Shown: positions 39,364-46,493 of the stretch, piece after piece
Layout: each line of letters starts with the position of its first letter
How positions within the stretch are numbered: position 1 is the first letter of the stretch
Origin: an uncultured Dehalococcoidia bacterium
GTDB lineage: Bacteria > Chloroflexota > Dehalococcoidia > DSTF01 > JACRBR01
Direction of reading: 5' to 3'
DNA length: 64,000 nt
Assembly: GCA_964371095.1 (NCBI GenBank)
Contig: CAYJMJ010000011.1
Coordinates: forward strand, 1,590 to 65,589
Made by a program: the position numbers and the translations under genes
Notes under the pieces: generated by a model
Seen by the model: only the letters and a program-made list of their open reading frames with translations
The model's database searches: none
What the model was told of the DNA's origin: nothing

Positions 39364-40116
39364 GTGACCTCCCCAGCCAGATCGACGCTTGCAGACGTAC
39401 GGCGGCTGTTGGAGCGGGTAAGCGGCCCAGACCGGGCCGGTTGGTACACGGCACGCTGCCCCTTCCACGACGACCGCCACCCGAGCCTGCGGTTCACCGA
39501 TGCTGGCTTCAAGTGCATGGCGTGCGAGGAGCACGGCAGCTTGGCCGACCTCAGACGGCGACTCCCTGGCGCGTCCGCAGATTCTGCTGCGTCGACGCCG
39601 CAAGCGATGCCGACGCCGTACGACTACGTCGACGAGGGCGGAGCGTTGCTGTTCCGGGCGGTGCGGAAGCGCCCCAAGGGGTTCTTCCAGCGGCGTCCCG
39701 ATGGGCAGGGCGGCTGGATCAACGACCTCAAGGGCGTGCGGCTCGTCCTGTACCGCCTGCCCGAAGTCCTGTCCGCTGATCCAAACGCGGCTCTTCTTGT
39801 CGTAGAAGGCGAGAAGGACGCGGACCGGCTGTGGGCGGAGGGCATCCCGGCAACGACTAACCCGATGGGCGCCGGCAAGTGGCGACCCGAGTACAACGAA
39901 CACCTGCGCCGCCGTCACATCCTGATCCTTCCCGACAACGACGAGACAGGGCGCAGGCACGCCAGCGACGTCGCACGATCCTTGCATAGCTTGGCCTCGG
40001 AGGTTCGGGTGCTAGGTCTACCAGACCTGCCCGGGAAAGGTGACATAAGCGACTGGCTCAACGTGGGAGGGACGATACAAGAACTCCTCACGCTGGCCGC
40101 GGTCTGCGCAAAGTGA
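39364..40116 (+). CDS. Mobile-element-type DNA primase (CHC2 zinc finger + TOPRIM), terminated by an in-frame TGA
   Basis: CPFHDDRHPSLRF...KCMAC zinc finger. TOPRIM LLVVEGEKDADRL / ILILPDNDETGRRHA. GTG start with GGGAGG SD. Confidence 0.8.
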   Translation: MTSPARSTLADVRRLLERVSGPDRAGWYTARCPFHDDRHPSLRFTDAGFKCMACEEHGSLADLRRRLPGASADSAASTPQAMPTPYDYVDEGGALLFRAVRKRPKGFFQRRPDGQGGWINDLKGVRLVLYRLPEVLSADPNAALLVVEGEKDADRLWAEGIPATTNPMGAGKWRPEYNEHLRRRHILILPDNDETGRRHASDVARSLHSLASEVRVLGLPDLPGKGDISDWLNVGGTIQELLTLAAVCAK

Positions 40117-40360
40117 GCGCCCGAGGAAACCACGGTCTCAGACGAACCGAGAGGCGAATGCGCCCGCAGCGACGCCGGCAACGGCGATCTCTTCGCGCAG
40201 CTGTACGGCGACCGTGTTCGCTACGACCACCGCCGGAAGCGCTGGCTCGTCTGGAGTGGCCATCACTGGACCGACGACGCGGACGGCGACGTCAGGCGTC
40301 TCGCCAAGCTCGCTGTCCGTCACCGCCAACTCGACACCCACGCGATCAAAGAGACGTCGC
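40117..40360 (+). pseudogene. Same-frame continuation of the primase past its TGA, encoding a P4/D5_N-type primase C-terminal motif (NGDLFAQLYGDRVRYDHRRKRWLVWSGHHWTDDADGDVRRLAKLAV) with no start codon. Nonsense-disrupted or truncated primase-helicase gene
   Basis: Frame 1 is open from 40117 and shares the frame of 39364..40116. No ATG/GTG/TTG until 40537. Downstream helicase portion absent. Confidence 0.45.
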
Positions 40361-40726
40361 ATGCCACTGGAGAACAGGAACCTGGAGCCCGGGACCGTGC
40401 TGGTCGCGCGGTACAAGAAGCAGGATCGGACCTGCGAGGTCGTGCAGACCGAGGAGGGCCTGCGCTACCGGCTGGACGACGGGAGCGAGCACAAGAGCCC
40501 GTCGAGCGCCGGCAAGGCGGCGATGGGAGGGGTCGCGTGCAACGGCTGGCGCTTCTGGTCCCTGCAAGGGACGGAGCCCGCGCGCAAGCCCAAGGCCGAG
40601 AAGCCGGCGAACGCGCAGCCGAAGAAGGCGCCCGCCAAGGGCGACGCCTACGGCTGCGGCGCCTGCGGCGAGTCCTTCCCCACGATGAAGGCGGAGACCA
40701 AGCACGCGCTGATGCACACCGCGTAG
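40361..40726 (+). CDS. DUF2924-like mobile-element protein with a C-terminal C2H2 zinc finger
   Basis: LEPGTVLVARYKKQDRTCEVV...SPSSAGKAAMGGVACNGWRFWSL resembles DUF2924. YGCGACGESFPTMKAETKHALMH is a C2H2 finger. Confidence 0.65.
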   Translation: MPLENRNLEPGTVLVARYKKQDRTCEVVQTEEGLRYRLDDGSEHKSPSSAGKAAMGGVACNGWRFWSLQGTEPARKPKAEKPANAQPKKAPAKGDAYGCGACGESFPTMKAETKHALMHTA

Positions 40727-40900
40727 CGACTGGCTCCCGCGACAGCGCGCACAGCAGGCCTCACGCGGGGCCTGCTGTCGTTGTACGCGCCGCGCCCCCT
40801 CCCCCACCGTGGCCCCGATCACGAACCGCCCGGCCGGCGGCGACAGGCGCATCCGGCTCGCAGTAATCGACGCGCTCCTCGACGGCGCGGAGGAGGCGTG

Positions 40901-41107
40901 ATGGACCGCACCGAGGATCAGGAGGATTGGGAAGACGCCGACTGCGAGACCGACGAGGAGGGCGACCGTGTGGCGACGGACGCCGCCTGGTACCGCGTCC
41001 GCGACCAAAAGGTCGATGAACTGCGCCCGCTGGTCGCTGCGGGAACGCTCACGGGCAAGGTGAAGGGGAAGCGTCTCCAGATCGAATGCGGGTCGTTTTA
41101 CGACTGA
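40901..41107 (+). CDS. Small acidic hypothetical protein (68 aa)
   Basis: GGAGGAGG SD before ATG 40901. MDRTEDQEDWEDADCETDEEGDR... Confidence 0.45.
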   Translation: MDRTEDQEDWEDADCETDEEGDRVATDAAWYRVRDQKVDELRPLVAAGTLTGKVKGKRLQIECGSFYD

Positions 41108-41119
41108 CTCGGGAAGCCG

Positions 41120-41605
41120 GTGCCCGTGGTGCCGGACCTGGGCATCGAGTTCGACGTGCGGCCGGACGACCGAGCACGCGAGGTGCGCCGCGAGCGCGAC
41201 GACCACGAGTTCATCCGCAGCCTGCTCGACCGCGGCGCCTGCGACCTTGAGCTGCCGCTCGACATGGAGTCGCCGCTGGCGATGGAGCCACGCCCGAAGG
41301 GCTTCGGGCTGGAGCTGGCCCGCGTCCTCGCCCTGAGAATCCGCAGAGGCGTGCAGGAGAACTGGCGGGAGCTGCGGGCGATCGAGGAGCAGCTCGATTC
41401 CATGAGCGAGGACTTCGACGGCGAGGACGTGCAGCATCCGCGCGCCCGCGTGCCGTTCGACGAGGCCAAGGCGATGCTGGTCGAACTGCACGAGAAGAGC
41501 CGGAAGTACACCGGGCCGTTCGATCTGCCCGAGCCCGACGACGATCTGCGCGCCACCGTGCAGCACATCGTCGACAACGAGGTCAGGCACGTTCCGACGC
41601 GGTAG
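41120..41605 (+). CDS. Hypothetical protein (mobile-element cargo)
   Basis: 161 aa, high GC3, no recognised domain. Confidence 0.55.
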   Translation: MPVVPDLGIEFDVRPDDRAREVRRERDDHEFIRSLLDRGACDLELPLDMESPLAMEPRPKGFGLELARVLALRIRRGVQENWRELRAIEEQLDSMSEDFDGEDVQHPRARVPFDEAKAMLVELHEKSRKYTGPFDLPEPDDDLRATVQHIVDNEVRHVPTR

Positions 41606-41638
41606 CGGCTTGGCCAGGCGACGCGATGGCATCCTCGT

Positions 41639-41983
41639 TTGGAGATCGCGGGCGTCCCGGCGATGATGGCGGGCATGGTCATCGTACTGTTGCCGGGGAT
41701 GTACGTCCGGTTCGAGAGCGTCCGCACGCGGGAGACGCTGCTGGAGGCGCGACCCATCGCAGAGGAGGCCCTCATCGTCTGGGGCACCGCACGGCGAGAT
41801 CGCTACGACGTCGGACTCCGCGAGGGAAGCGTCCGGATCACGGGCACGCTCTGGGACCGCATCGCGCCCGCAGTCTCGTTCGGCCACGATGCGGTGCGGT
41901 TCCACACGCGGGTCAGCATCGACTCCGCCGCTCTTCCTGAGGGCTACGACGGCTCGTGGCAGCGGGACGAGTCGGCCGGCTGA
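41639..41983 (+). CDS. Hypothetical protein
   Basis: 114 aa, high GC3. TTG/ATG start ambiguous. Confidence 0.5.
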   Translation: MEIAGVPAMMAGMVIVLLPGMYVRFESVRTRETLLEARPIAEEALIVWGTARRDRYDVGLREGSVRITGTLWDRIAPAVSFGHDAVRFHTRVSIDSAALPEGYDGSWQRDESAG

Positions 41984-42435
41984 GCGCCCGGCCGCGCGCC
42001 GCGCCATCAACGCACACGATGGCCAGATGGTGCGCGCCTCGCTCGGCAACCGGTCAATCGTCAAGCCGCTCGGCCTCAGCAGGCGATCAGCAGTGGTACC
42101 CGAGCTTGAACTGCGAGAACGCGACTGAGCCTCTGCCGCGCCGATCGCGCCGTCCACGGGTCGAGTGCGGCGGTCAGAGCGGACACCGGGACGCTGTAGA
42201 AATCCCAGGAGTCGGAAGGCTCGAGCGCCGCGAACGTGCGTCCCCTTTCGTCGCTGCAAGCCGTCGCTGTCGGTGTCGGTCGTACATGCAGGCGTAGGTC
42301 AATGCCAGTCACCGGCGGCGGAATCGTCATCACTGCCGTCTCGACAAGCGGTGGTTGTCGAGTCCGTGCGGCGCATCACGAACGGGAAGAAACGCAGACC
42401 TAGCTCGGCCTTAGGGTGTCGTGGCCGCGGCGTCG

Positions 42436-43815
42436 TTATGCCGCGCGGCTGCGCCGCACCTGCTTCAGCGACAGCAGCACCTGCACCACCCGCGGGTCGA
42501 ACTGCGTGCCGCTGTGGCGCGCGATCTCCTCGCACGCCTCCGCCTCGCTGCGCGCCGACTGGTACGGCCGGTCCGACGTGATCGCGTCGAACGTATCCGC
42601 GACCGCGAAGATGCGCGCCGCCAGCGGGATCTCTTCGGCGCGCAGTCCGTCCGGGTATCCCTGCCCGTCGAAGCGCTCGTGGTGCGCCCGCACCAGCTGT
42701 GCCGCGCTGCCGAGGAAGCGCACAGCACGCAGCATTTGGTAGCCGTGCATCGAATGCGTCTTGATGATTTCCCATTCTGCCCCGTCGAGCGCGCCCGGCT
42801 TGCGCAAGATCGCGTCCGGCACGCCGATCTTGCCGACGTCGTGCAACAGCGCGCCGTGCTTCAGATCCAGCCATTCGCGCGTATGCGGCTTCATCCCCAT
42901 CGCGCGCCCCAACTCGAGCGCCAGGTCCGCCACCCGCCGCGAGTGCCCGTGCGTCTCGACGTCGCGCGCGTCGAGCGCCGAGACGAACGCCGCGAGCGTT
43001 TCGTTGTATGCTTCCGTCAGTTCGTCGGTCAGCGCCTCCACCTCGGCGTTCTTCGCCCGCAGCTCGCGCACCGTGCGCTCGGTGTGAGCCACGTACTGCT
43101 GCATCGTGAAGCGCGTCATCATCACGGGCAGCGTGAAGCCGACGATCCCGTAGCCCGACAGCGCGCGGTACGCGATCGTCAGCAGGAACGCCAGGAAGCC
43201 CAGCACGACGTAGTGCGGCGCCAGCCACGCGAACTTCTCCCACCACACCGCTCTCACGGGCGCGCCACCGCTGAACGCGATGATCGCCGCAACGAGCGCA
43301 CTGCTCGCCGCGAACTGAGCGAGCGCTGCGGCGACGATCGCCGATGCCTCGATCGGGCGCGCGCCGTATGGCGCCAGCGTCATCGTCAGCTCGTATGTGG
43401 CGCCCGCCGCCAGCGCCGCGAGCACGAATACCGCGACGTTGAAGATCAGCTTGTACAGCGGCCGCCCTCGCCCCGCGTGGCCCGCCAGCGCGATGGCCGG
43501 ACAAACAACGAGCGCCGCCGCCGGCCCGAACAACACCACCGCCGTCAGCGTAAACAGCGCGCTGACGGAGATCCGCCCCTCGCCGTATACGTTGATGTCG
43601 AACCGCTCCGCGGTCATGCCGAGCGCTGCGATCAGCAGGATGCCGGCCCATTCCCGGCCGATGACCGGCACGTCCGTGAACGGCGTCGCGATCACCGCCG
43701 CGAAGGCGGCGGCGGCGATGAGCAGGCGCGCGCGCACGGGCAGCGACGCCGGCGCCGAGCTGCCGGCTGGCGCCGATTCCGACCCGAGGTCGCGCGGAAT
43801 TGCGGGGATGCTCAA
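42436..43815 (-). CDS. Membrane-anchored HD-GYP domain c-di-GMP phosphodiesterase with an N-terminal multi-TM sensor domain
   Basis: HD motif LLHDVGKIGVPD, GYP motif RFDGQGYPDGL. ~7 TM N-terminus. TTG start. Confidence 0.85.
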   Translation of the reverse strand: MSIPAIPRDLGSESAPAGSSAPASLPVRARLLIAAAAFAAVIATPFTDVPVIGREWAGILLIAALGMTAERFDINVYGEGRISVSALFTLTAVVLFGPAAALVVCPAIALAGHAGRGRPLYKLIFNVAVFVLAALAAGATYELTMTLAPYGARPIEASAIVAAALAQFAASSALVAAIIAFSGGAPVRAVWWEKFAWLAPHYVVLGFLAFLLTIAYRALSGYGIVGFTLPVMMTRFTMQQYVAHTERTVRELRAKNAEVEALTDELTEAYNETLAAFVSALDARDVETHGHSRRVADLALELGRAMGMKPHTREWLDLKHGALLHDVGKIGVPDAILRKPGALDGAEWEIIKTHSMHGYQMLRAVRFLGSAAQLVRAHHERFDGQGYPDGLRAEEIPLAARIFAVADTFDAITSDRPYQSARSEAEACEEIARHSGTQFDPRVVQVLLSLKQVRRSRAA

Positions 43816-43966
43816 AGGCTCGCCCTTCTACTGCAGAAGTTGTCGTCGCTTCGCCCCGAGAAGAACAGGCAATTTCGCCGGATTCGTGCGCGGCTTCCCT
43901 TCAGACCCAGCCCGAGCGGCCGATTGATGGGTTGGAACCCCCTTAAGGGTTCCCGGACAACCGAAT

Positions 43967-44079
43967 ACACACCTCCGAAAAAGGCAAACCCGTCCGAAAG
44001 GCGGGGGCGCAAAGCCACGGGTCTACCCCCGCCGCGGGCGGGCACGACAGCCGGGCTGCCGGTTTCTTTGTTTCGGAGC
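43967..44079 (+). promoter_or_regulatory. c-di-GMP-I (GEMM) riboswitch aptamer in the 5' leader of the S8 protease gene. A terminator-like hairpin (~44083-44120) follows, before the SD GGAGGTGG
   Basis: Matches GEMM hallmarks: P1 CUCCGAAA...UUUCGGAG, GGCAAACC, GAAA tetraloop hairpin CCGUCCGAAAGGCGGG, GCGCAAAGCC, CGGG, CAGCCGGG, UGCCG. Confidence 0.65.
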
Positions 44080-44128
44080 CAAGGCCCCCGATCTCGGGCT
44101 GAGGTCGGGGGCTTCTCTCGTTACGGAG

Positions 44129-45655
44129 GTGGTCATGTTTACACCCTGGCGTATCCGTCTCTCCACTCTGGCCGCGCTGACCATCGTCGTGGCGGTGCTC
44201 TCGGCCGGACTGACGCCGGTCCGGTCCCAGCTCCACACGCAGGACGCCGTCTGGGCGTACCGCGACGCCCATCGCGGCGAATCGGTGCCAGTCATCGTCC
44301 AGGCGGCTCCCGGCGCCGATGCTGCGCAACTCGTGCGCGCCGCCGGCGGCGACGTGCGATCGACGCTCGGCTTGATCGGCGGCGTCGCGGCGAGCGTCCC
44401 CGGCGACCAGCTCCAGAAGCTTGCGGCGTCCAGCGACGTCGCGTGGATGAGCCTCGACGGCGGCATCACGTCGCTCGGCGGCGGCAAGAACAGCCTCGTC
44501 GCGGCCGATGGCGCCGTCGCCCAGACCAGCGTCTACCCCCAGGAGATCCACGCCGACAAGGTGTGGAACGACGGCAACTACGGCCAGGGCGTCGGCGTCG
44601 TCGTCCTCGACACCGGCGTCGTCCAGAGTGACGACTTCGTCACCAGTGGCAACAACCGCCTCGCCGCGACGATCGCGCCCGCCGCGGCGACGACCGCCGA
44701 CGGCTACGGCCACGGCTCGCACGTCGCCGGCCTCATCGGCGGCGATGGCAGCAACTCCAACGGCAAGTACACCGGCGTCGCGCCGCAGGTCAACCTGATC
44801 AGCGTCCGCGCCGGCGACGACTCCGGCGTAGCGCAGCTCAGCGACGTCATCAACGGCCTGCAGTGGGTGCTCGACAACAAGGACGCGTACAACATCCGCG
44901 TCGTCAACCTGTCGCTGCGCTCCGACGTCGCGCAGAGCTACACCACCGACCCGCTCGACGCCGCGGTCGAGCTGCTGACCTTCCGCGGCATTCTCGTCGT
45001 CGTCGCCGCCGGCAATACAGGCACGGTGGCCGATGCGGTTTCCTACGCGCCGGCGAACGATCCCTTCGTCCTCACCGTGGGCGCGCTCGACGACATGGGC
45101 ACGCCCGAGTACAGGGACGACGTCGTACCGGCGTGGTCGAGCCGCGGCGTCACGCAGGACGGCTTCGCCAAGCCCGACGTCTACGTGCCGGGCCGGCGCC
45201 TGATCTCTGTCCTCAGCCCGGGCAGCGTCCTCGCGACCGAATACCCGGACAACGTCGTCGGCACGTCGTACTTCCAGCTCAGCGGCACGTCGATGGCCGC
45301 CGGCGTGGCGAGCGGTGCGGCGGCGCTCGTGTTCCAGGCGCACCCCGACTGGACGCCCTTCCAGGCGAAGTCCGCGATTCTCAAGGGCAGCGTGCCGCTG
45401 CCGGCCAACTCCGGCGTCAGGGTCGAGCAAGTCGACCGCGTCATCGGTCAGAAGTTCGATGATGACGACGGCGCCCTGCCGGTCATCAAGCCCAACTACC
45501 TGCTGCTGGAGGCCGCCGGCATCGCCGACCCGCAGAGCATCAGCTGGGGCTCGATCAGCTGGGGCAGCATCTCCTGGGGGTCCATCTCGTGGGGAAGCAT
45601 CAGCTGGGGCTCGATCAGTTGGGGCAGCATCTCCTGGGGTTCGGCAGGGAAGTAA
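44129..45655 (+). CDS. Secreted subtilisin-like serine peptidase (S8 family) with a C-terminal 7x SISWG pentapeptide repeat tail
   Basis: Signal peptide. Catalytic D (VVVLDTGV), H (GHGSHVAG), S (GTSMAAG). C-terminus QSISWGSISWG...SAGK. Confidence 0.9.
   Translation: MVMFTPWRIRLSTLAALTIVVAVLSAGLTPVRSQLHTQDAVWAYRDAHRGESVPVIVQAAPGADAAQLVRAAGGDVRSTLGLIGGVAASVPGDQLQKLAASSDVAWMSLDGGITSLGGGKNSLVAADGAVAQTSVYPQEIHADKVWNDGNYGQGVGVVVLDTGVVQSDDFVTSGNNRLAATIAPAAATTADGYGHGSHVAGLIGGDGSNSNGKYTGVAPQVNLISVRAGDDSGVAQLSDVINGLQWVLDNKDAYNIRVVNLSLRSDVAQSYTTDPLDAAVELLTFRGILVVVAAGNTGTVADAVSYAPANDPFVLTVGALDDMGTPEYRDDVVPAWSSRGVTQDGFAKPDVYVPGRRLISVLSPGSVLATEYPDNVVGTSYFQLSGTSMAAGVASGAAALVFQAHPDWTPFQAKSAILKGSVPLPANSGVRVEQVDRVIGQKFDDDDGALPVIKPNYLLLEAAGIADPQSISWGSISWGSISWGSISWGSISWGSISWGSISWGSAGK
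45536..45640 (+). repeat. Coding tandem repeat: 7 x 15 nt (SISWG), with a 60-nt super-period (units 1-3 ~ units 5-7)
   Basis: agcatcagctggggc tcgatcagctggggc agcatctcctggggg tccatctcgtgggga agcatcagctggggc tcgatcagttggggc agcatctcctggggt. Confidence 0.9.
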
Positions 45656-45665
45656 GGCAACGGTG

Positions 45666-46493
45666 ATGATCAGCAAGAACGCAACCCTGCGCTCTACGAT
45701 CTTCAGCCTCCCGGCCGGCCGCGCGCTGCGAGCGTACGTGGCCGTGGTCACGGCCGCCGGCGCTACGGCAGCTGCCTTCGCTGCGACGGTCGGCCACGGC
45801 TCCGGAGACGTTGGCCTCATCGCCGGGCTCGTCGTTGCGGGCGCCGTCTCGGAGCGCTGGAAGGTTGGCCTCTTCGGCGATGCGCACGTCTCGCTCAGCG
45901 CAGCGGTGCTGATGGCGGCCGGGCTCGCAGGCGGACCGCGCGACGTAGCGATCGTCGCGCCGCTGCTCGCGGTGGCCGTTAACCTCGGCAGCGTCGTACC
46001 GCTCTACAAGACCGTCTTCAACGCCGCGACGTACCTTCTCGCTTCGCTCGCATTCCTCGTCACGGTGAACTTCTTCGTGCCGCAGCCCGATGCGGGCGAC
46101 TGGCTGCACGTTGTCGCTCCCGCCACCGCCGGCGTGGGCGTCTACTTCGCCGTCAACGCCGCTCTCGTCGCCGTGGCCGTCGTCCTCGCCAGCGGCGAGA
46201 GCATGCTCGACGTCGTGCGCGGCCGCTTCCTGTGGCTGCTGCCCAACTACCTCCCTGTCGGCGCCATCGCCGCCGCGTTCCTGCTCGGCTACGACTCGAT
46301 CGGCGCCTGGGCGATCCTCGTGTTCGCGGGTCCCGCGGCGGGCGTCCAGATCGCGCTCGTCCTCTTCGCCGCCGTCAAGCGGTCCGGCGAGGAGCAGTTG
46401 CGCGAGATGGAGGAGCGCATGCAGGCAGTTGAGCGCGAACTCGCGTTGGCGCGCCGCCTCGATGGCAACGGTGGCATCCCGAACGTCGCCTGA
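45666..46493 (+). CDS. Multi-TM membrane protein paralogous to the N-terminal sensor domain of the divergent HD-GYP protein (no output domain; C-terminal coiled-coil-like tail)
   Basis: Shared blocks: SERWKVGLFGDAHVSLSAAVL vs AERFDINVYGEGRISVSALF; VPLYKTVFNAATYLLASLAF vs RPLYKLIFNVAVFVLAALAA. Confidence 0.7.
   Translation: MISKNATLRSTIFSLPAGRALRAYVAVVTAAGATAAAFAATVGHGSGDVGLIAGLVVAGAVSERWKVGLFGDAHVSLSAAVLMAAGLAGGPRDVAIVAPLLAVAVNLGSVVPLYKTVFNAATYLLASLAFLVTVNFFVPQPDAGDWLHVVAPATAGVGVYFAVNAALVAVAVVLASGESMLDVVRGRFLWLLPNYLPVGAIAAAFLLGYDSIGAWAILVFAGPAAGVQIALVLFAAVKRSGEEQLREMEERMQAVERELALARRLDGNGGIPNVA

Follow-up and report, generated by a model that had tools for sequence, protein, structure and literature searches.

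A leader RNA resembling a cyclic di-GMP aptamer, located between a secreted protease gene and a cyclic-dinucleotide phosphodiesterase gene on the opposite strand, raises the question of whether these parts form one second-messenger circuit and, if so, in which direction the RNA would act on the protease. We analysed this locus within a stretch of 64,000 nucleotides of DNA from an uncultured Dehalococcoidia bacterium (the window).

The genes of the locus and the aptamer

42436–43815, minus strand: HD-GYP cyclic-dinucleotide phosphodiesterase, 459 amino acids (PF13487, E 2.5e-38; PF01966, E 5e-22)
43081–43758, within this gene: MASE9-like membrane domain (amino acids ~20–245), then a coiled-coil linker
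42487–42984, within this gene: catalytic domain (amino acids 278–443)
43974–44064, plus strand: c-di-GMP-I (GEMM-I) aptamer (gathering-level Rfam match)
43983, 44011 and 44059, plus strand: G20, A47 and C92 of the aptamer, with a GAAA tetraloop at 43996–99
44060–62, plus strand: CGG, the 3' strand of aptamer helix P1
44135–45655 (alternative start 44129), plus strand: secreted or membrane-tethered subtilase, 506 amino acids (PF00082, E 2.9e-41), with a signal or anchor helix (amino acids 4–23), an I9-like prodomain (~37–113) and an S8 domain (~134–437)
45536–45640, plus strand: seven tandem 15-nucleotide units encoding (SISWG)x7 at the protease C-terminus (TRF periods 15, 30 and 45)
45666–46493, plus strand: stand-alone MASE9-like membrane protein, 275 amino acids

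An earlier, sequence-only reading of this DNA proposed that a GEMM (c-di-GMP-I) aptamer resides in the leader of an exported S8 protease gene, and both parts of this proposal are borne out. A search against Rfam (cmscan) yielded only one riboswitch match at gathering threshold in the window, at 43974–44064 on the plus strand, to model RF03167 of clan CL00126 (65.8 bits at E 2.5e-13; the gathering score is 59). The sequence blocks listed in that reading are all present, comprising GGCAAACC (43983–90), a GAAA-capped hairpin (43990–44007), GCGCAAAGCC (44007–16) and CAGCCGGGCUGCCG (44048–61). However, its assignment of P1 to CUCCGAAA (43973–80) and UUUCGGAG (44071–78) stands only in part. These segments are a genuine 8-base-pair complement, but the covariance model places P1 at CCG (43975–77) and CGG (44060–62), which makes the proposed helix an outer closing helix or an alternative one. 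Where the contig covers an orthologous leader in full, that leader always has a riboswitch match at the Rfam gathering level, and orthologous leaders score 61.7–80.2 bits to riboswitch models. In the leader alignment, the aptamer helices are maintained by compensatory changes, and the ligand-contact bases G20, A47 and C92 are invariant (13 of 13 leaders).

The protein downstream of the aptamer carries a signal peptide and an intact catalytic triad, with D159, H196, N294 and S386 (numbered from the ATG at 44135) as catalytic residues, and the triad is invariant in 28 homologues. Its best solved relative is Tk-SP (3afg, E 2e-44), and its AF2 model has a pLDDT of 77.9 and a pTM of 0.79, with values of 26–32 for the pLDDT of amino acids 465–506. 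All protease orthologues, and a broad S8 subfamily of Chloroflexota, carry repeats of the (I/V)xWx form, and one population variant of the protease (L005) is shorter by 20 amino acids, equal to four repeats. As a new lead, these Trp pentapeptide repeats co-occur with the gene for the stand-alone MASE9 protein. The divergent gene was likewise read correctly as encoding a membrane HD-GYP phosphodiesterase, as judged by PF13487 and by the HD and HHERFDGQGYP motifs visible in the translation. Gene callers agree on the 459-amino-acid product, whose best solved relatives are V-cGAP3 (5z7c, E 6e-48), 4mcw and 4r8z.

Leader elements and the direction of switching

43900–43924, plus strand: promoter-like pair, (T/A)(T/A)CAGA at 43900–05 and CCGAT at 43920–24 (leader conservation)
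43934–43953, plus strand: 5' hairpin GGAACCC/GGGUUCC upstream of the aptamer (folding)
43957–43967, plus strand: conserved single-stranded motif ACAAYYGAAUA, near-invariant in alignments A1 and A2
43970–43977, plus strand: anti-Shine-Dalgarno (anti-SD) strand CACCUCCG, overlapping the P1 5' strand (CCG, 43975–77)
44071–44078, plus strand: decoy element Z, UUUCGGAG (alignment and pairing tables)
44084–44122, plus strand: terminator-like hairpin with a 12-base-pair stem (44084–95/44101–12) and loop GGGCU, then a pyrimidine-rich tract (44113–22)
44124–44131, plus strand: Shine-Dalgarno (SD) sequence CGGAGGUG, 3 nucleotides upstream of the ATG at 44135 (direct reading)

Upstream of the aptamer, CAG and CCGA of the promoter-like pair are invariant, with a fixed spacing of 15 nucleotides that needs no alignment gaps, across 13 leaders located before genes of three different kinds. 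A sigma-70 consensus scan found nothing at 43900–43924, and we infer that this pair is a promoter that an alternative sigma factor may use. A hairpin with unrelated stem sequences occupies the position of 43934–43953 in almost all related leaders (folding z-scores mostly −1.8 to −3.7), and no Rfam family matched this 5' extension of the leader. The ACAAYYGAAUA motif may alternatively pair (YYGAA/UUCGG) with the 3' element at 44071–78, and it also occurs in leaders that lack a counterpart of that element.

The anti-SD strand CACCUCCG is a perfect 8-nucleotide complement of 44124–31, and this 8-mer occurs only 8 times in the window on both strands. Among the S8 and 91-amino-acid leaders, the SD keeps the form (C/U)GGAGGUG. 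A helix between the anti-SD and the SD is present in the minimum free energy (MFE) structure of all 11 leaders folded, three of which have a different platform, and also in the RNAalifold consensus and the centroid structure. Because the leaders were gathered in part by a pattern that fixes CACCTCCGA, the anti-SD is conserved there in part because of how the leaders were chosen. States with the aptamer formed lie 7–15 kcal/mol above the MFE, a gap that tight ligand binding by class I aptamers and kinetic trapping can cover. Since the ligand-stabilised P1 uses the anti-SD strand, a translational ON switch is favoured, and from pairing and conservation the anti-SD/SD duplex is predicted to be the conserved switchable element.

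In the ON model, the 5' strand of P1 lies within CACCUCCG, itself a perfect anti-SD. Without ligand, this strand would pair with the SD while the decoy UCGG(AG) would hold the P1 3' strand CCGG, and translation would be off. Binding of c-di-GMP to the nascent aptamer would lock P1 (CCG:CGG), thereby occupying the anti-SD and freeing the SD for translation of the operon. Decoy element Z has several pairing options, namely CUCCGAAA at 43973–80 (8 base-pairs), CCGG at 44059–62 (a small hairpin) and YYGAA at 43961–65. The TCGGAGCCAA portion of Z is invariant in 13 leaders, the CCGG:UCGG hairpin is part of the RNAalifold consensus, and in most of the leaders tested, folds of truncated transcripts have the aptamer closed by an X:Z helix. 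The same platform is found in the L029 leader, where it precedes TadE/TadG-like pilus genes. Pilus genes of this type are usually induced by c-di-GMP.

Several observations count against the ON model. The junction-adjacent P1 has only 3 base-pairs, which makes the ligand-bound architecture uncertain, and the helix that actually closes the aptamer may be the outer one of 6–8 base-pairs, CUCCGA(AA)/(UU)UCGGAG. In addition, CACCUCC is complementary to any strong SD. Finally, terminator-type OFF switches typically show what is seen here, a strong covarying hairpin followed by a pyrimidine/U tract.

This last observation bears on a different mechanism, in which c-di-GMP would let the 44084–44112 hairpin terminate transcription at the U/C tract, such that the protease and the sensor-only protein would be made only at low c-di-GMP, in line with other proteases that c-di-GMP represses. 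The sequence-only reading had described a GC hairpin and U-rich tract resembling a terminator. The hairpin is real, and its 12-base-pair GC stem is conserved with the tract in 13 related leaders, five stem pairs having pair-keeping changes on both sides. However, the tract (UUCUCUCGUU) is pyrimidine-rich with no clean U run (4 U among its first 9 nucleotides in the window), and any terminator platform is putative. Moreover, the hairpin is present in every fold, with or without an aptamer constraint, and truncated-transcript folds across the leaders revealed no conserved antiterminator or other hairpin-disrupting pairing, the partner of the 5' arm differing by leader. Three S8 leaders (L023, L026 and L028) lack this hairpin yet retain the anti-SD/SD pair. 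Repression does have precedent, since most characterised class I switches of C. difficile are OFF switches, including Cdi-1-12, which represses the protease ZmpI (PMC6200980). Also, in the close relatives L017 and L022 the P1 3' strand is formed by the SD, which is an OFF design. We judge a transcriptional OFF switch to be possible but rather unlikely. Under the ON model, the covarying hairpin between aptamer and SD would form in both states, perhaps for constitutive or partial termination or for leader organisation, and it may still terminate transcription.

The sensor-only protein, the conserved unit and the ligand

The 275-amino-acid protein gene starts 10 nucleotides past the S8 stop codon, which suggests co-transcription. 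Its product had been regarded as a free-standing copy of the HD-GYP membrane domain, and comparisons with the HD-GYP N-terminus identify it as a true paralogue of that domain (BLASTP: 28% identity over 212 amino acids, E 8e-16; hhalign profile-profile alignment: probability 99.85%, E 6e-31, 247 columns). Neither MASE9-like copy in the window reaches the Pfam MASE9 threshold, both being too divergent. The protein comprises seven or eight helices, two of them short and paired (amino acids 77–106), and a coiled-coil tail at the C-terminus (...EERMQAVERELALARRLD...NVA). A membrane domain of several helices with such a short pair, ahead of HD-GYP, is likewise found in T. maritima TM1467 and S. venezuelae HdgA, but the output-less stand-alone form in a protease operon is absent from the survey of MASE9-HD-GYP proteins (Galperin & Chou, bioRxiv 10.1101/2021.11.05.467447).

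The 275-amino-acid protein could instead serve in substrate capture or transport (for example, of protease products) as an ECF S-component-type protein, the HD-GYP protein having borrowed this fold as a sensor. Its predicted model, which is of moderate confidence, resembles S components (CbiM, RibU, FolT, ThiT and BioY), and the highest Foldseek TM-scores (up to 0.63) are to this family, but with non-significant E-values of 0.7 or higher. There is no detectable sequence similarity to S components, and no Pfam S-component family matched even at E up to 10. The closest clusters in a profile search are stand-alone members of ~240–290 amino acids, although relatives are also fused to HD-GYP, GGDEF, GGDEF-EAL and histidine-kinase outputs. 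Relative to S components, the protein also has additional helices and a long coiled coil in the cytoplasm, the linker shared with HD-GYP being retained, and genes for EcfT and EcfA are absent among the called genes of every locus. A transport role is therefore improbable.

At least 10 divergent contigs of Dehalococcoidia/Chloroflexota carry the three-gene unit with its riboswitch amid differing flanking genes, the unit being complete in L007, L010, L013, L032, L035, L039 and L041 and partial in L009, L018, L023, L026 and L028. Among GTDB representatives, it occurs only in Dehalococcoidia MAGs. The HD-GYP gene runs on the opposite strand and has no riboswitch of its own, and gene order in L037 seems different, as might be expected if these genes were neighbours by descent only and their adjacency had no functional meaning. 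However, the divergent pair is retained from 100% to ~44% S8 identity while the flanking genes on both sides change completely, which makes such a coincidence quite improbable and strengthens the earlier proposal that the components form one unit.

If the aptamer belonged to a variant class with another ligand (c-di-GMP-I-GGC or the 3',3'-cGAMP-sensing GEMM-Ib), the module would not read c-di-GMP. RF03167, which Rfam labels 'c-di-GMP-I-GGC', is the top-scoring model for the window and all 19 full-length relatives, the window sequence is very near its consensus overall, and 5z7c, the best solved relative of the HD-GYP protein, is a cGAMP-specific enzyme. Weinberg and colleagues reportedly defined the GGC variant in 2017 by a G at the A47 position. 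The RF03167 consensus has this G (ACGCGAAG), whereas the window and all relatives (20+) carry A (GCGCAAAG or ACGCAAAG), a mismatch left blank in the cmscan match line and a column that is invariant in alignment A2. Each RF03167 match, including that of the window, masks a lower same-clan match above its own gathering score, and RF01051 itself matches a 5'-truncated aptamer copy in L038 at 67.6 bits. Variants that sense cGAMP carry A at position 20, which is G here. On these grounds the 'GGC' label is best read as a cross-match, a variant ligand is very improbable, and the sequence identifies the element as a putative canonical class I c-di-GMP riboswitch.

Like the RF01051 representatives V. 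cholerae Vc2 and C. difficile Cd1, this element is a three-helix aptamer with a GAAA-capped hairpin and G20/A47/C92, passes Rfam gathering thresholds and is placed in the 5' leader of a gene whose product is secreted or surface-located. It differs in its very short junction-proximal P1 (3 base-pairs) with an outer alternative helix, in a P1 5' strand that also serves as an 8-nucleotide anti-SD, in its conserved 5' extension (promoter-like motif, hairpin and ACAAYYGAAUA) and in its host phylum, Chloroflexota.

Precedents and the proposed circuit

Riboswitch control of an S8 protease combined with a sensor-only paralogue had been considered undescribed, but control of a secreted protease by a riboswitch has a precedent, since the class I riboswitch Cdi-1-12 of C. 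difficile controls the secreted metalloprotease ZmpI (PMC6200980). There as well, a class I switch is located directly before an exported protease gene and ties the second messenger to surface-protein processing. In contrast to the present locus, ZmpI is a zinc metalloprotease rather than an S8 subtilase, Cdi-1-12 is an OFF switch acting via a terminator, and there is neither a co-transcribed sensor-domain paralogue nor an adjacent HD-GYP gene. Thus, the locus joins known parts, among them an established class of riboswitch, in an arrangement of genes that is new, and only the combination of S8 protease, sensor-only protein and divergent HD-GYP appears to be undescribed.

We consider it fairly probable that the conserved unit of canonical switch, two-gene operon and divergent MASE9-HD-GYP gene operates as the proposed ON circuit. 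High c-di-GMP would then lead to production of both the protease and a catalytically empty MASE9 paralogue, which has its membrane domain and the start of its coiled-coil linker in common with the phosphodiesterase. Given these shared parts, it is conceivable, purely by inference, that the two MASE9 proteins interact. The paralogue could compete for the ligand of the phosphodiesterase or form mixed dimers with it, and would thereby exert feedback on c-di-GMP breakdown.

The aptamer in the S8 protease leader and its class

A GEMM (c-di-GMP-I) aptamer in the leader of the S8 protease gene had been proposed in a sequence-only reading of this DNA, and a gathering-level match was found there when the Rfam covariance models were run. 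This match, to RF03167 (c-di-GMP-I-GGC, clan CL00126), covers positions 43974-44064 of the forward strand with 65.8 bits (gathering score 59, E 2.5e-13) and is the only one at the gathering threshold in the whole window, accompanied by one lower-scoring match from the same clan. Leaders of related loci yield 61.7-80.2 bits against the Rfam riboswitch models, and RF03167 is the top-scoring model in all 19 full-length relatives, each with a lower same-clan match underneath. The 5'-truncated aptamer of related locus L038 matches RF01051 at 67.6 bits, and locus L024 matches this same model at 44.4 bits (gathering score 35).

The GGC variant is reportedly defined by G20, G47 and C92, as opposed to G20, A47 and C92 in ordinary aptamers of this class. 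Positions 20, 47 and 92 of the cmscan alignment are occupied by G 43983, A 44011 and C 44059, all three of which are invariant in an alignment of 13 related leaders. In Vc2 numbering, G20, A47 and C92 are the ligand-contact nucleotides in crystal structures of the class I aptamer. At the diagnostic block, cmscan alignments give the RF03167 consensus as ACGCGAAG / GGGACGCGAAgCc, whereas the window carries GCGCAAAG / GGGGCGCAAAGCC and its relatives ACGCAAAG / GGGACGCAAAGCC, with the mismatch in the column right after GC. Membership in the GGC variant is rejected, given that the diagnostic G is absent and that A47 is found in both the window and its relatives. Specificity for 3',3'-cGAMP (GEMM-Ib), whose mark is presumably an A at position 20, is likewise rejected on the invariant G at 43983.

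Because G20, A47 and C92 are invariant, and because of the same-clan matches in the relatives and the RF01051 score of L038, we conclude from sequence that the aptamer belongs to the canonical c-di-GMP-I class and that its RF03167 label is a cross-hit. The aptamer helices are retained in an RNAalifold consensus of the 13 leaders, with two-sided changes at pairs 129/136, 157/189 and 166/181; covariation backing is modest because most positions are invariant. RF03167 out-scores RF01051 on every full-length canonical aptamer of this Chloroflexota clade (the window and L007-L041), none of which carries the diagnostic G, and automatic annotation will therefore mislabel these aptamers as the GGC variant.

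The expression platform and the direction of switching

Alignment of the 13 leaders gives the following layout.

Leader elements upstream of the protease gene (window coordinates, strand, description)
43900-43905 and 43920-43924, +, promoter-like pair (T/A)(T/A)CAGA and CCGAT, with a fixed 15-nt gap from the invariant CAG to CCGA
43934-43953, +, hairpin whose stem sequence varies among leaders (alignment and folding)
43957-43967, +, motif ACAAYYGAAUA (alignment)
43970-43978, +, CACCUCCGA, overlapping the 5' strand of aptamer P1 (alignment)
44059-44062, +, invariant CCGG, followed by a short linker (alignment)
44073-44082, +, invariant UCGGAGCCAA (alignment)
44084-44095 / 44101-44112, +, GC hairpin of 12 bp with five compensatory pairs
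44113-44122, +, pyrimidine-rich tract (alignment)
44124-44131, +, Shine-Dalgarno (SD) sequence CGGAGGUG, with the ATG at 44135

The 5' extension upstream of the aptamer (43900-43967), comprising CAG-N15-CCGA, the hairpin and ACAAYYGAAUA, is conserved across the 13 leaders. No Rfam family for it was detected in 43780-44180 at E up to 5, where only noise (HOXA11-AS1_3, P17) was returned. A consensus scan found no sigma-70 promoter in the intergenic region, and the CAG-N15-CCGA pair is unlike the sigma-70 consensus.

The covariance model places P1 at CCG 43975-43977 / CGG 44060-44062. The sequence-only reading had assigned P1 to CUCCGAAA / UUUCGGAG; this helix does exist, although not as P1 but as an outer helix of 6-8 bp that shares the 5' strand of P1. 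When transcripts were folded after truncation just downstream of the decoy element (44071-44078, able to pair with the P1 strands), the outer helix closed the aptamer in most leaders tested.

The 5' strand of P1 overlaps an anti-SD segment, CACCUCCG (43970-43977), which is perfectly complementary to the SD; counting both strands, this 8-mer is present only eight times in the 64 kb window. Each of the 11 leaders tested has the anti-SD:SD helix in its minimum-free-energy fold, and this set includes L023, L026 and L028, which have neither the decoy element nor the GC hairpin. The centroid structure predicted for the window leader contains the helix as well (z = -3.8), and the RNAalifold consensus combines it with a hairpin, CCGG:UCGG, in which the 3' strand of P1 is tied up. 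Structures in which the aptamer is imposed, with either form of P1, lie 7-15 kcal/mol above the minimum, an amount that tight class I ligand binding together with co-transcriptional trapping can cover. On ligand binding, the anti-SD strand would be held in P1 and the SD would remain accessible, which would make the riboswitch a translational ON switch, an assignment that we hold, from these folding results, at slightly better than even.

The main alternative is that the GC hairpin, which the sequence-only reading had likened to an expression-platform terminator, does act as one, so that ligand binding would turn transcription off. The hairpin (44084-44095 / 44101-44112) is strong and covaries, and a terminator-type OFF switch has a precedent in Cdi-1-12/ZmpI of C. 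difficile (PMC6200980). However, the U tract that follows is poor, the tail UUCUCUCGUU holding four U in its first nine nucleotides, and an intrinsic-terminator consensus scan passes over the GC hairpin to call only the aptamer's own stem at 44049-44064. The hairpin also forms in both states, whether or not the aptamer is forced, and no conserved antiterminator partner of its 5' arm was found when transcripts truncated before the hairpin 3' arm and after the decoy element were folded. Three S8 leaders (L023, L026 and L028) manage without this hairpin altogether. Furthermore, a platform identical to that of the window precedes TadE/TadG-like pilus genes in L029, and genes of this class are usually induced by c-di-GMP. 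The hairpin itself stands as proposed, whereas its reading as a terminator needs revision.

Opposite logic is found on the same 5' strand, CACCUCCG, in two related aptamers, L017:314-409 (-) and L022:1280-1373 (+). In these, the P1 3' strand (CG-AA-GAGGUG) is the SD of a downstream secreted protein, which amounts to an OFF design; the direction of the switch can therefore flip within the clade.

Riboswitches of the window type also occur in other settings. Loci L020, L029 and L031 carry two of them about 420 nt apart, each before its own small ORF (for example L029:9914-10429, minus strand), and in L029 TadE/TadG-like pilus assembly genes follow the pair. At L016, L019, L021 and L030, the riboswitch and platform precede an ORF for a 91-aa membrane protein (for example L021:2042-2297, minus strand, with the ORF after it). 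The C-terminal tail of this protein (EERIRIIREELAQARRLD...HVA) resembles that of the stand-alone MASE9-like protein of the window (41% identity over 73 aa), and the tail common to both contains an RxxD-like RRLD motif.

The protease and the paired membrane proteins

Coding features of the unit (window coordinates, strand, description)
42436-43815, -, HD-GYP protein of 459 aa (PF13487, E 2.5e-38, 131.9 bits)
44135-45655, +, Peptidase_S8 (PF00082, E 2.9e-41, 142.1 bits)
45536-45640, +, 15-nt tandem repeats encoding (SISWG)x7, within the last 40 residues of the protease
45666-46493, +, stand-alone membrane protein of 275 aa, with no match in Pfam or NCBIfam

The Pfam matches bear out both an S8 protease behind the riboswitch and an HD-GYP gene divergent from its operon. 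Across 28 sequences, the catalytic triad and oxyanion Asn of the protease (D159, H196, N294 and S386) show no variation. A hydrophobic helix at aa 4-23 is followed by an I9-like prodomain, and the closest solved structure is Tk-SP (PDB 3afg, E 2e-44). The HD-GYP protein carries HGHS, HD, H..H and HHERFDGQGYP motifs that align with V-cGAP3.

The repeat tail of the protease is given no confident structure by AlphaFold (pLDDT 26-32). Trp repeats are a hallmark of the family, with 7-9 copies in orthologues, and a wider Chloroflexota S8 subfamily carries SIKWG, KISWS, AIRWG, GIRWS, AIKWD, and SVNWG or SVQWG versions in up to ~25 copies; one search for Chloroflexota S8 proteins with (I/V)xWxx repeats gave 2325 hits. 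A literature search for Trp pentapeptide repeats of subtilases returned nothing relevant. The SISWG array varies in copy number within the population: the protease at L005:2633-4093 has 486 aa, 20 aa (four repeats) below the 506-aa form, in genes that are otherwise identical. An S8 orthologue of 602 aa on a 1.05 Mb contig (P0213) runs through the repeats in another frame (…SSGARSSGAASSG…) into MASE9-like sequence, which suggests that the repeats contain a frameshift or were misassembled; the S8 and MASE9 genes are again adjacent.

The stand-alone protein was correctly recognized in the sequence-only reading as a copy of the HD-GYP membrane domain. Aligned to the first 270 residues of the HD-GYP protein, it is 28% identical over 212 aa (E 8e-16), and profile-profile comparison gives 99.85% probability (E 6e-31) over 247 columns that include the start of the coiled-coil linker. 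The orthologous pairs all show this paralogy, at E-values as low as 2.5e-24. No Pfam or NCBIfam family was detected for the 275-aa protein or for the HD-GYP N-terminus at E up to 10, and this includes Pfam MASE9 (PF20972). Orthologue P0011 nonetheless reaches 26.6 bits against the PF20972 gathering score of 24.3 and P0012 reaches 17.8, while among profile relatives P0040 and P0041 pass and P0030, P0044 and P0051 fall just under the cut-off.

MASE9 is a promiscuous membrane sensor domain of about eight helices, two of them short (a re-entrant hairpin), that is fused to c-di-GMP or kinase outputs (bioRxiv 10.1101/2021.11.05.467447). The family of the 275-aa protein agrees with this description in its short helix pair and in its output fusions. 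The AF2 model (pLDDT 75.6) has helices at 19-42, 49-70, 77-89, 91-106, 113-137, 147-176 and 180-267, the short pair lying at aa 77-106. A profile search of 1.8 billion representatives identified 1194 relatives. Among these, the nearest 11 clusters consist entirely of stand-alone proteins (240-273 aa) or their fragments, and the next-closest are fusions to HD-GYP, GGDEF, GGDEF-HD-GYP and histidine kinases.

In Foldseek searches with the 275-aa model, ECF S components rank top by TM-score (up to 0.63), with E-values that are not significant. Neither a Pfam match to ECF families nor ECF genes in the examined neighbourhoods were found, and membership among the ECF-transporter S components is not supported; what is seen is a resemblance of fold. 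We regard an S-component-like fold of the MASE9-like domain as a supported lead from structure prediction. A literature search found nothing that links an S component to a c-di-GMP sensor.

The stand-alone protein keeps the membrane domain and the start of the signalling helix with no output, and the simplest reading is that it serves as a decoy or modulator. It would be expressed under c-di-GMP control beside the full-length HD-GYP enzyme and, by way of a shared ligand or mixed dimers, could exert feedback on c-di-GMP breakdown.

A more elaborate proposal, to which we give little credence, is that the operon forms a c-di-GMP-gated signalling device in which Trp peptides are released and then sensed by the S-component-like MASE9 domain. 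The predicted disordered pentapeptide array (GSISW here; KISWS, AIRWG and AIKWD elsewhere) would be cut after Trp into many small peptides, with the domain as their receptor, whether stand-alone or as part of the HD-GYP phosphodiesterase. This would close a loop of c-di-GMP level, peptide release and c-di-GMP breakdown, possibly acting from cell to cell. Such repeats are also found alongside stand-alone MASE9 genes of distant lineages: L037 (IRWS/IRWG), L039, L040 (AIRWG), L041 and L043 (IKWD/IRWD). At L038:1-1239, the contig start cuts a c-di-GMP-I aptamer, behind which lie genes for a signal-peptide protein of 69 aa, a stand-alone MASE9-like protein (P0025) and a TM+PAS protein, in that order. 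No S8 gene is present, and the 69-aa protein ends exactly in ...GGGASTDKISW*, with one 'ISW' unit left at its C-terminus, a layout that would fit cleavage after Trp into small peptides sensed by MASE9. A search for homologues of P0025 returned only itself, leaving the ISW-ending small protein as a single example, and L044 carries a stand-alone MASE9 gene without a Trp-repeat or ISW neighbour, which counts against the proposal.

Conservation and meaning of the unit

The exact 275-aa protein is found on 22 metagenome contigs, with identical context in all. Contigs of more distant orthologues (47-85% identical) were also examined, and further leaders were collected by a metagenome scan with the pattern CACCTCCGANAAAGGCAAACCCG. 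The complete unit, with HD-GYP on the minus strand, riboswitch, S8 and stand-alone MASE9-like genes, is present at L007/L008, L010, L013, L032, L035, L039 and L041/L042, and part of it on the short contigs L009, L011/L012, L018, L023, L026, L028, L037 and L040. Its neighbours differ wholly from locus to locus (for example HTH regulator and SDR; ABC-2 transporter and methyltransferase; sulfatase and thiolase). A riboswitch match at the gathering level is found in every leader not cut short by a contig end. This pattern makes a good case for selection holding the four elements together.

Named records that carry the unit are all Dehalococcoidia MAGs. A GTDB scan identified only two Dehalococcoidia species representatives, which is probably an undercount because the scan relies on short peptide patterns. 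Upstream of the window's unit, 39364-42000 holds a primase-like ORF of Toprim/zinc-finger type (39364-40116) together with several small ORFs, of which one has a weak RAMA-domain match in the L002 gene calls. These genes, which are not common to the other loci, may be a mobile-element remnant.

The overall description in the sequence-only reading was essentially correct, apart from P1 and the terminator. Its claim of novelty holds in part. The class I riboswitch is known, and a protease under such a switch has precedent in Cdi-1-12/ZmpI (PMC6200980). Literature searches found no paper joining a c-di-GMP riboswitch with a subtilisin, and no description of the full combination of divergent MASE9-HD-GYP gene, riboswitch, Trp-repeat S8 gene and stand-alone MASE9 gene. 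Since riboswitches, HD-GYP enzymes and subtilases are well known, what is added on the RNA side is one more member, not a new principle.

From a phylum that is little studied and largely uncultured, the unit offers a compact, conserved arrangement in which a riboswitch reader, an enzyme that degrades the messenger and a copy of that enzyme's sensor without an output are genetically tied, making feedback by a 'sensor-only' decoy directly testable. The predicted resemblance to S components would supply a structural rationale for ligand binding by MASE9 inside the membrane. Moreover, a large, unannotated subfamily of Chloroflexota subtilases with Trp pentapeptide repeats is linked to MASE9-type membrane proteins and, as we know of no ligand for MASE9, this link gives a hint of where to look for one.
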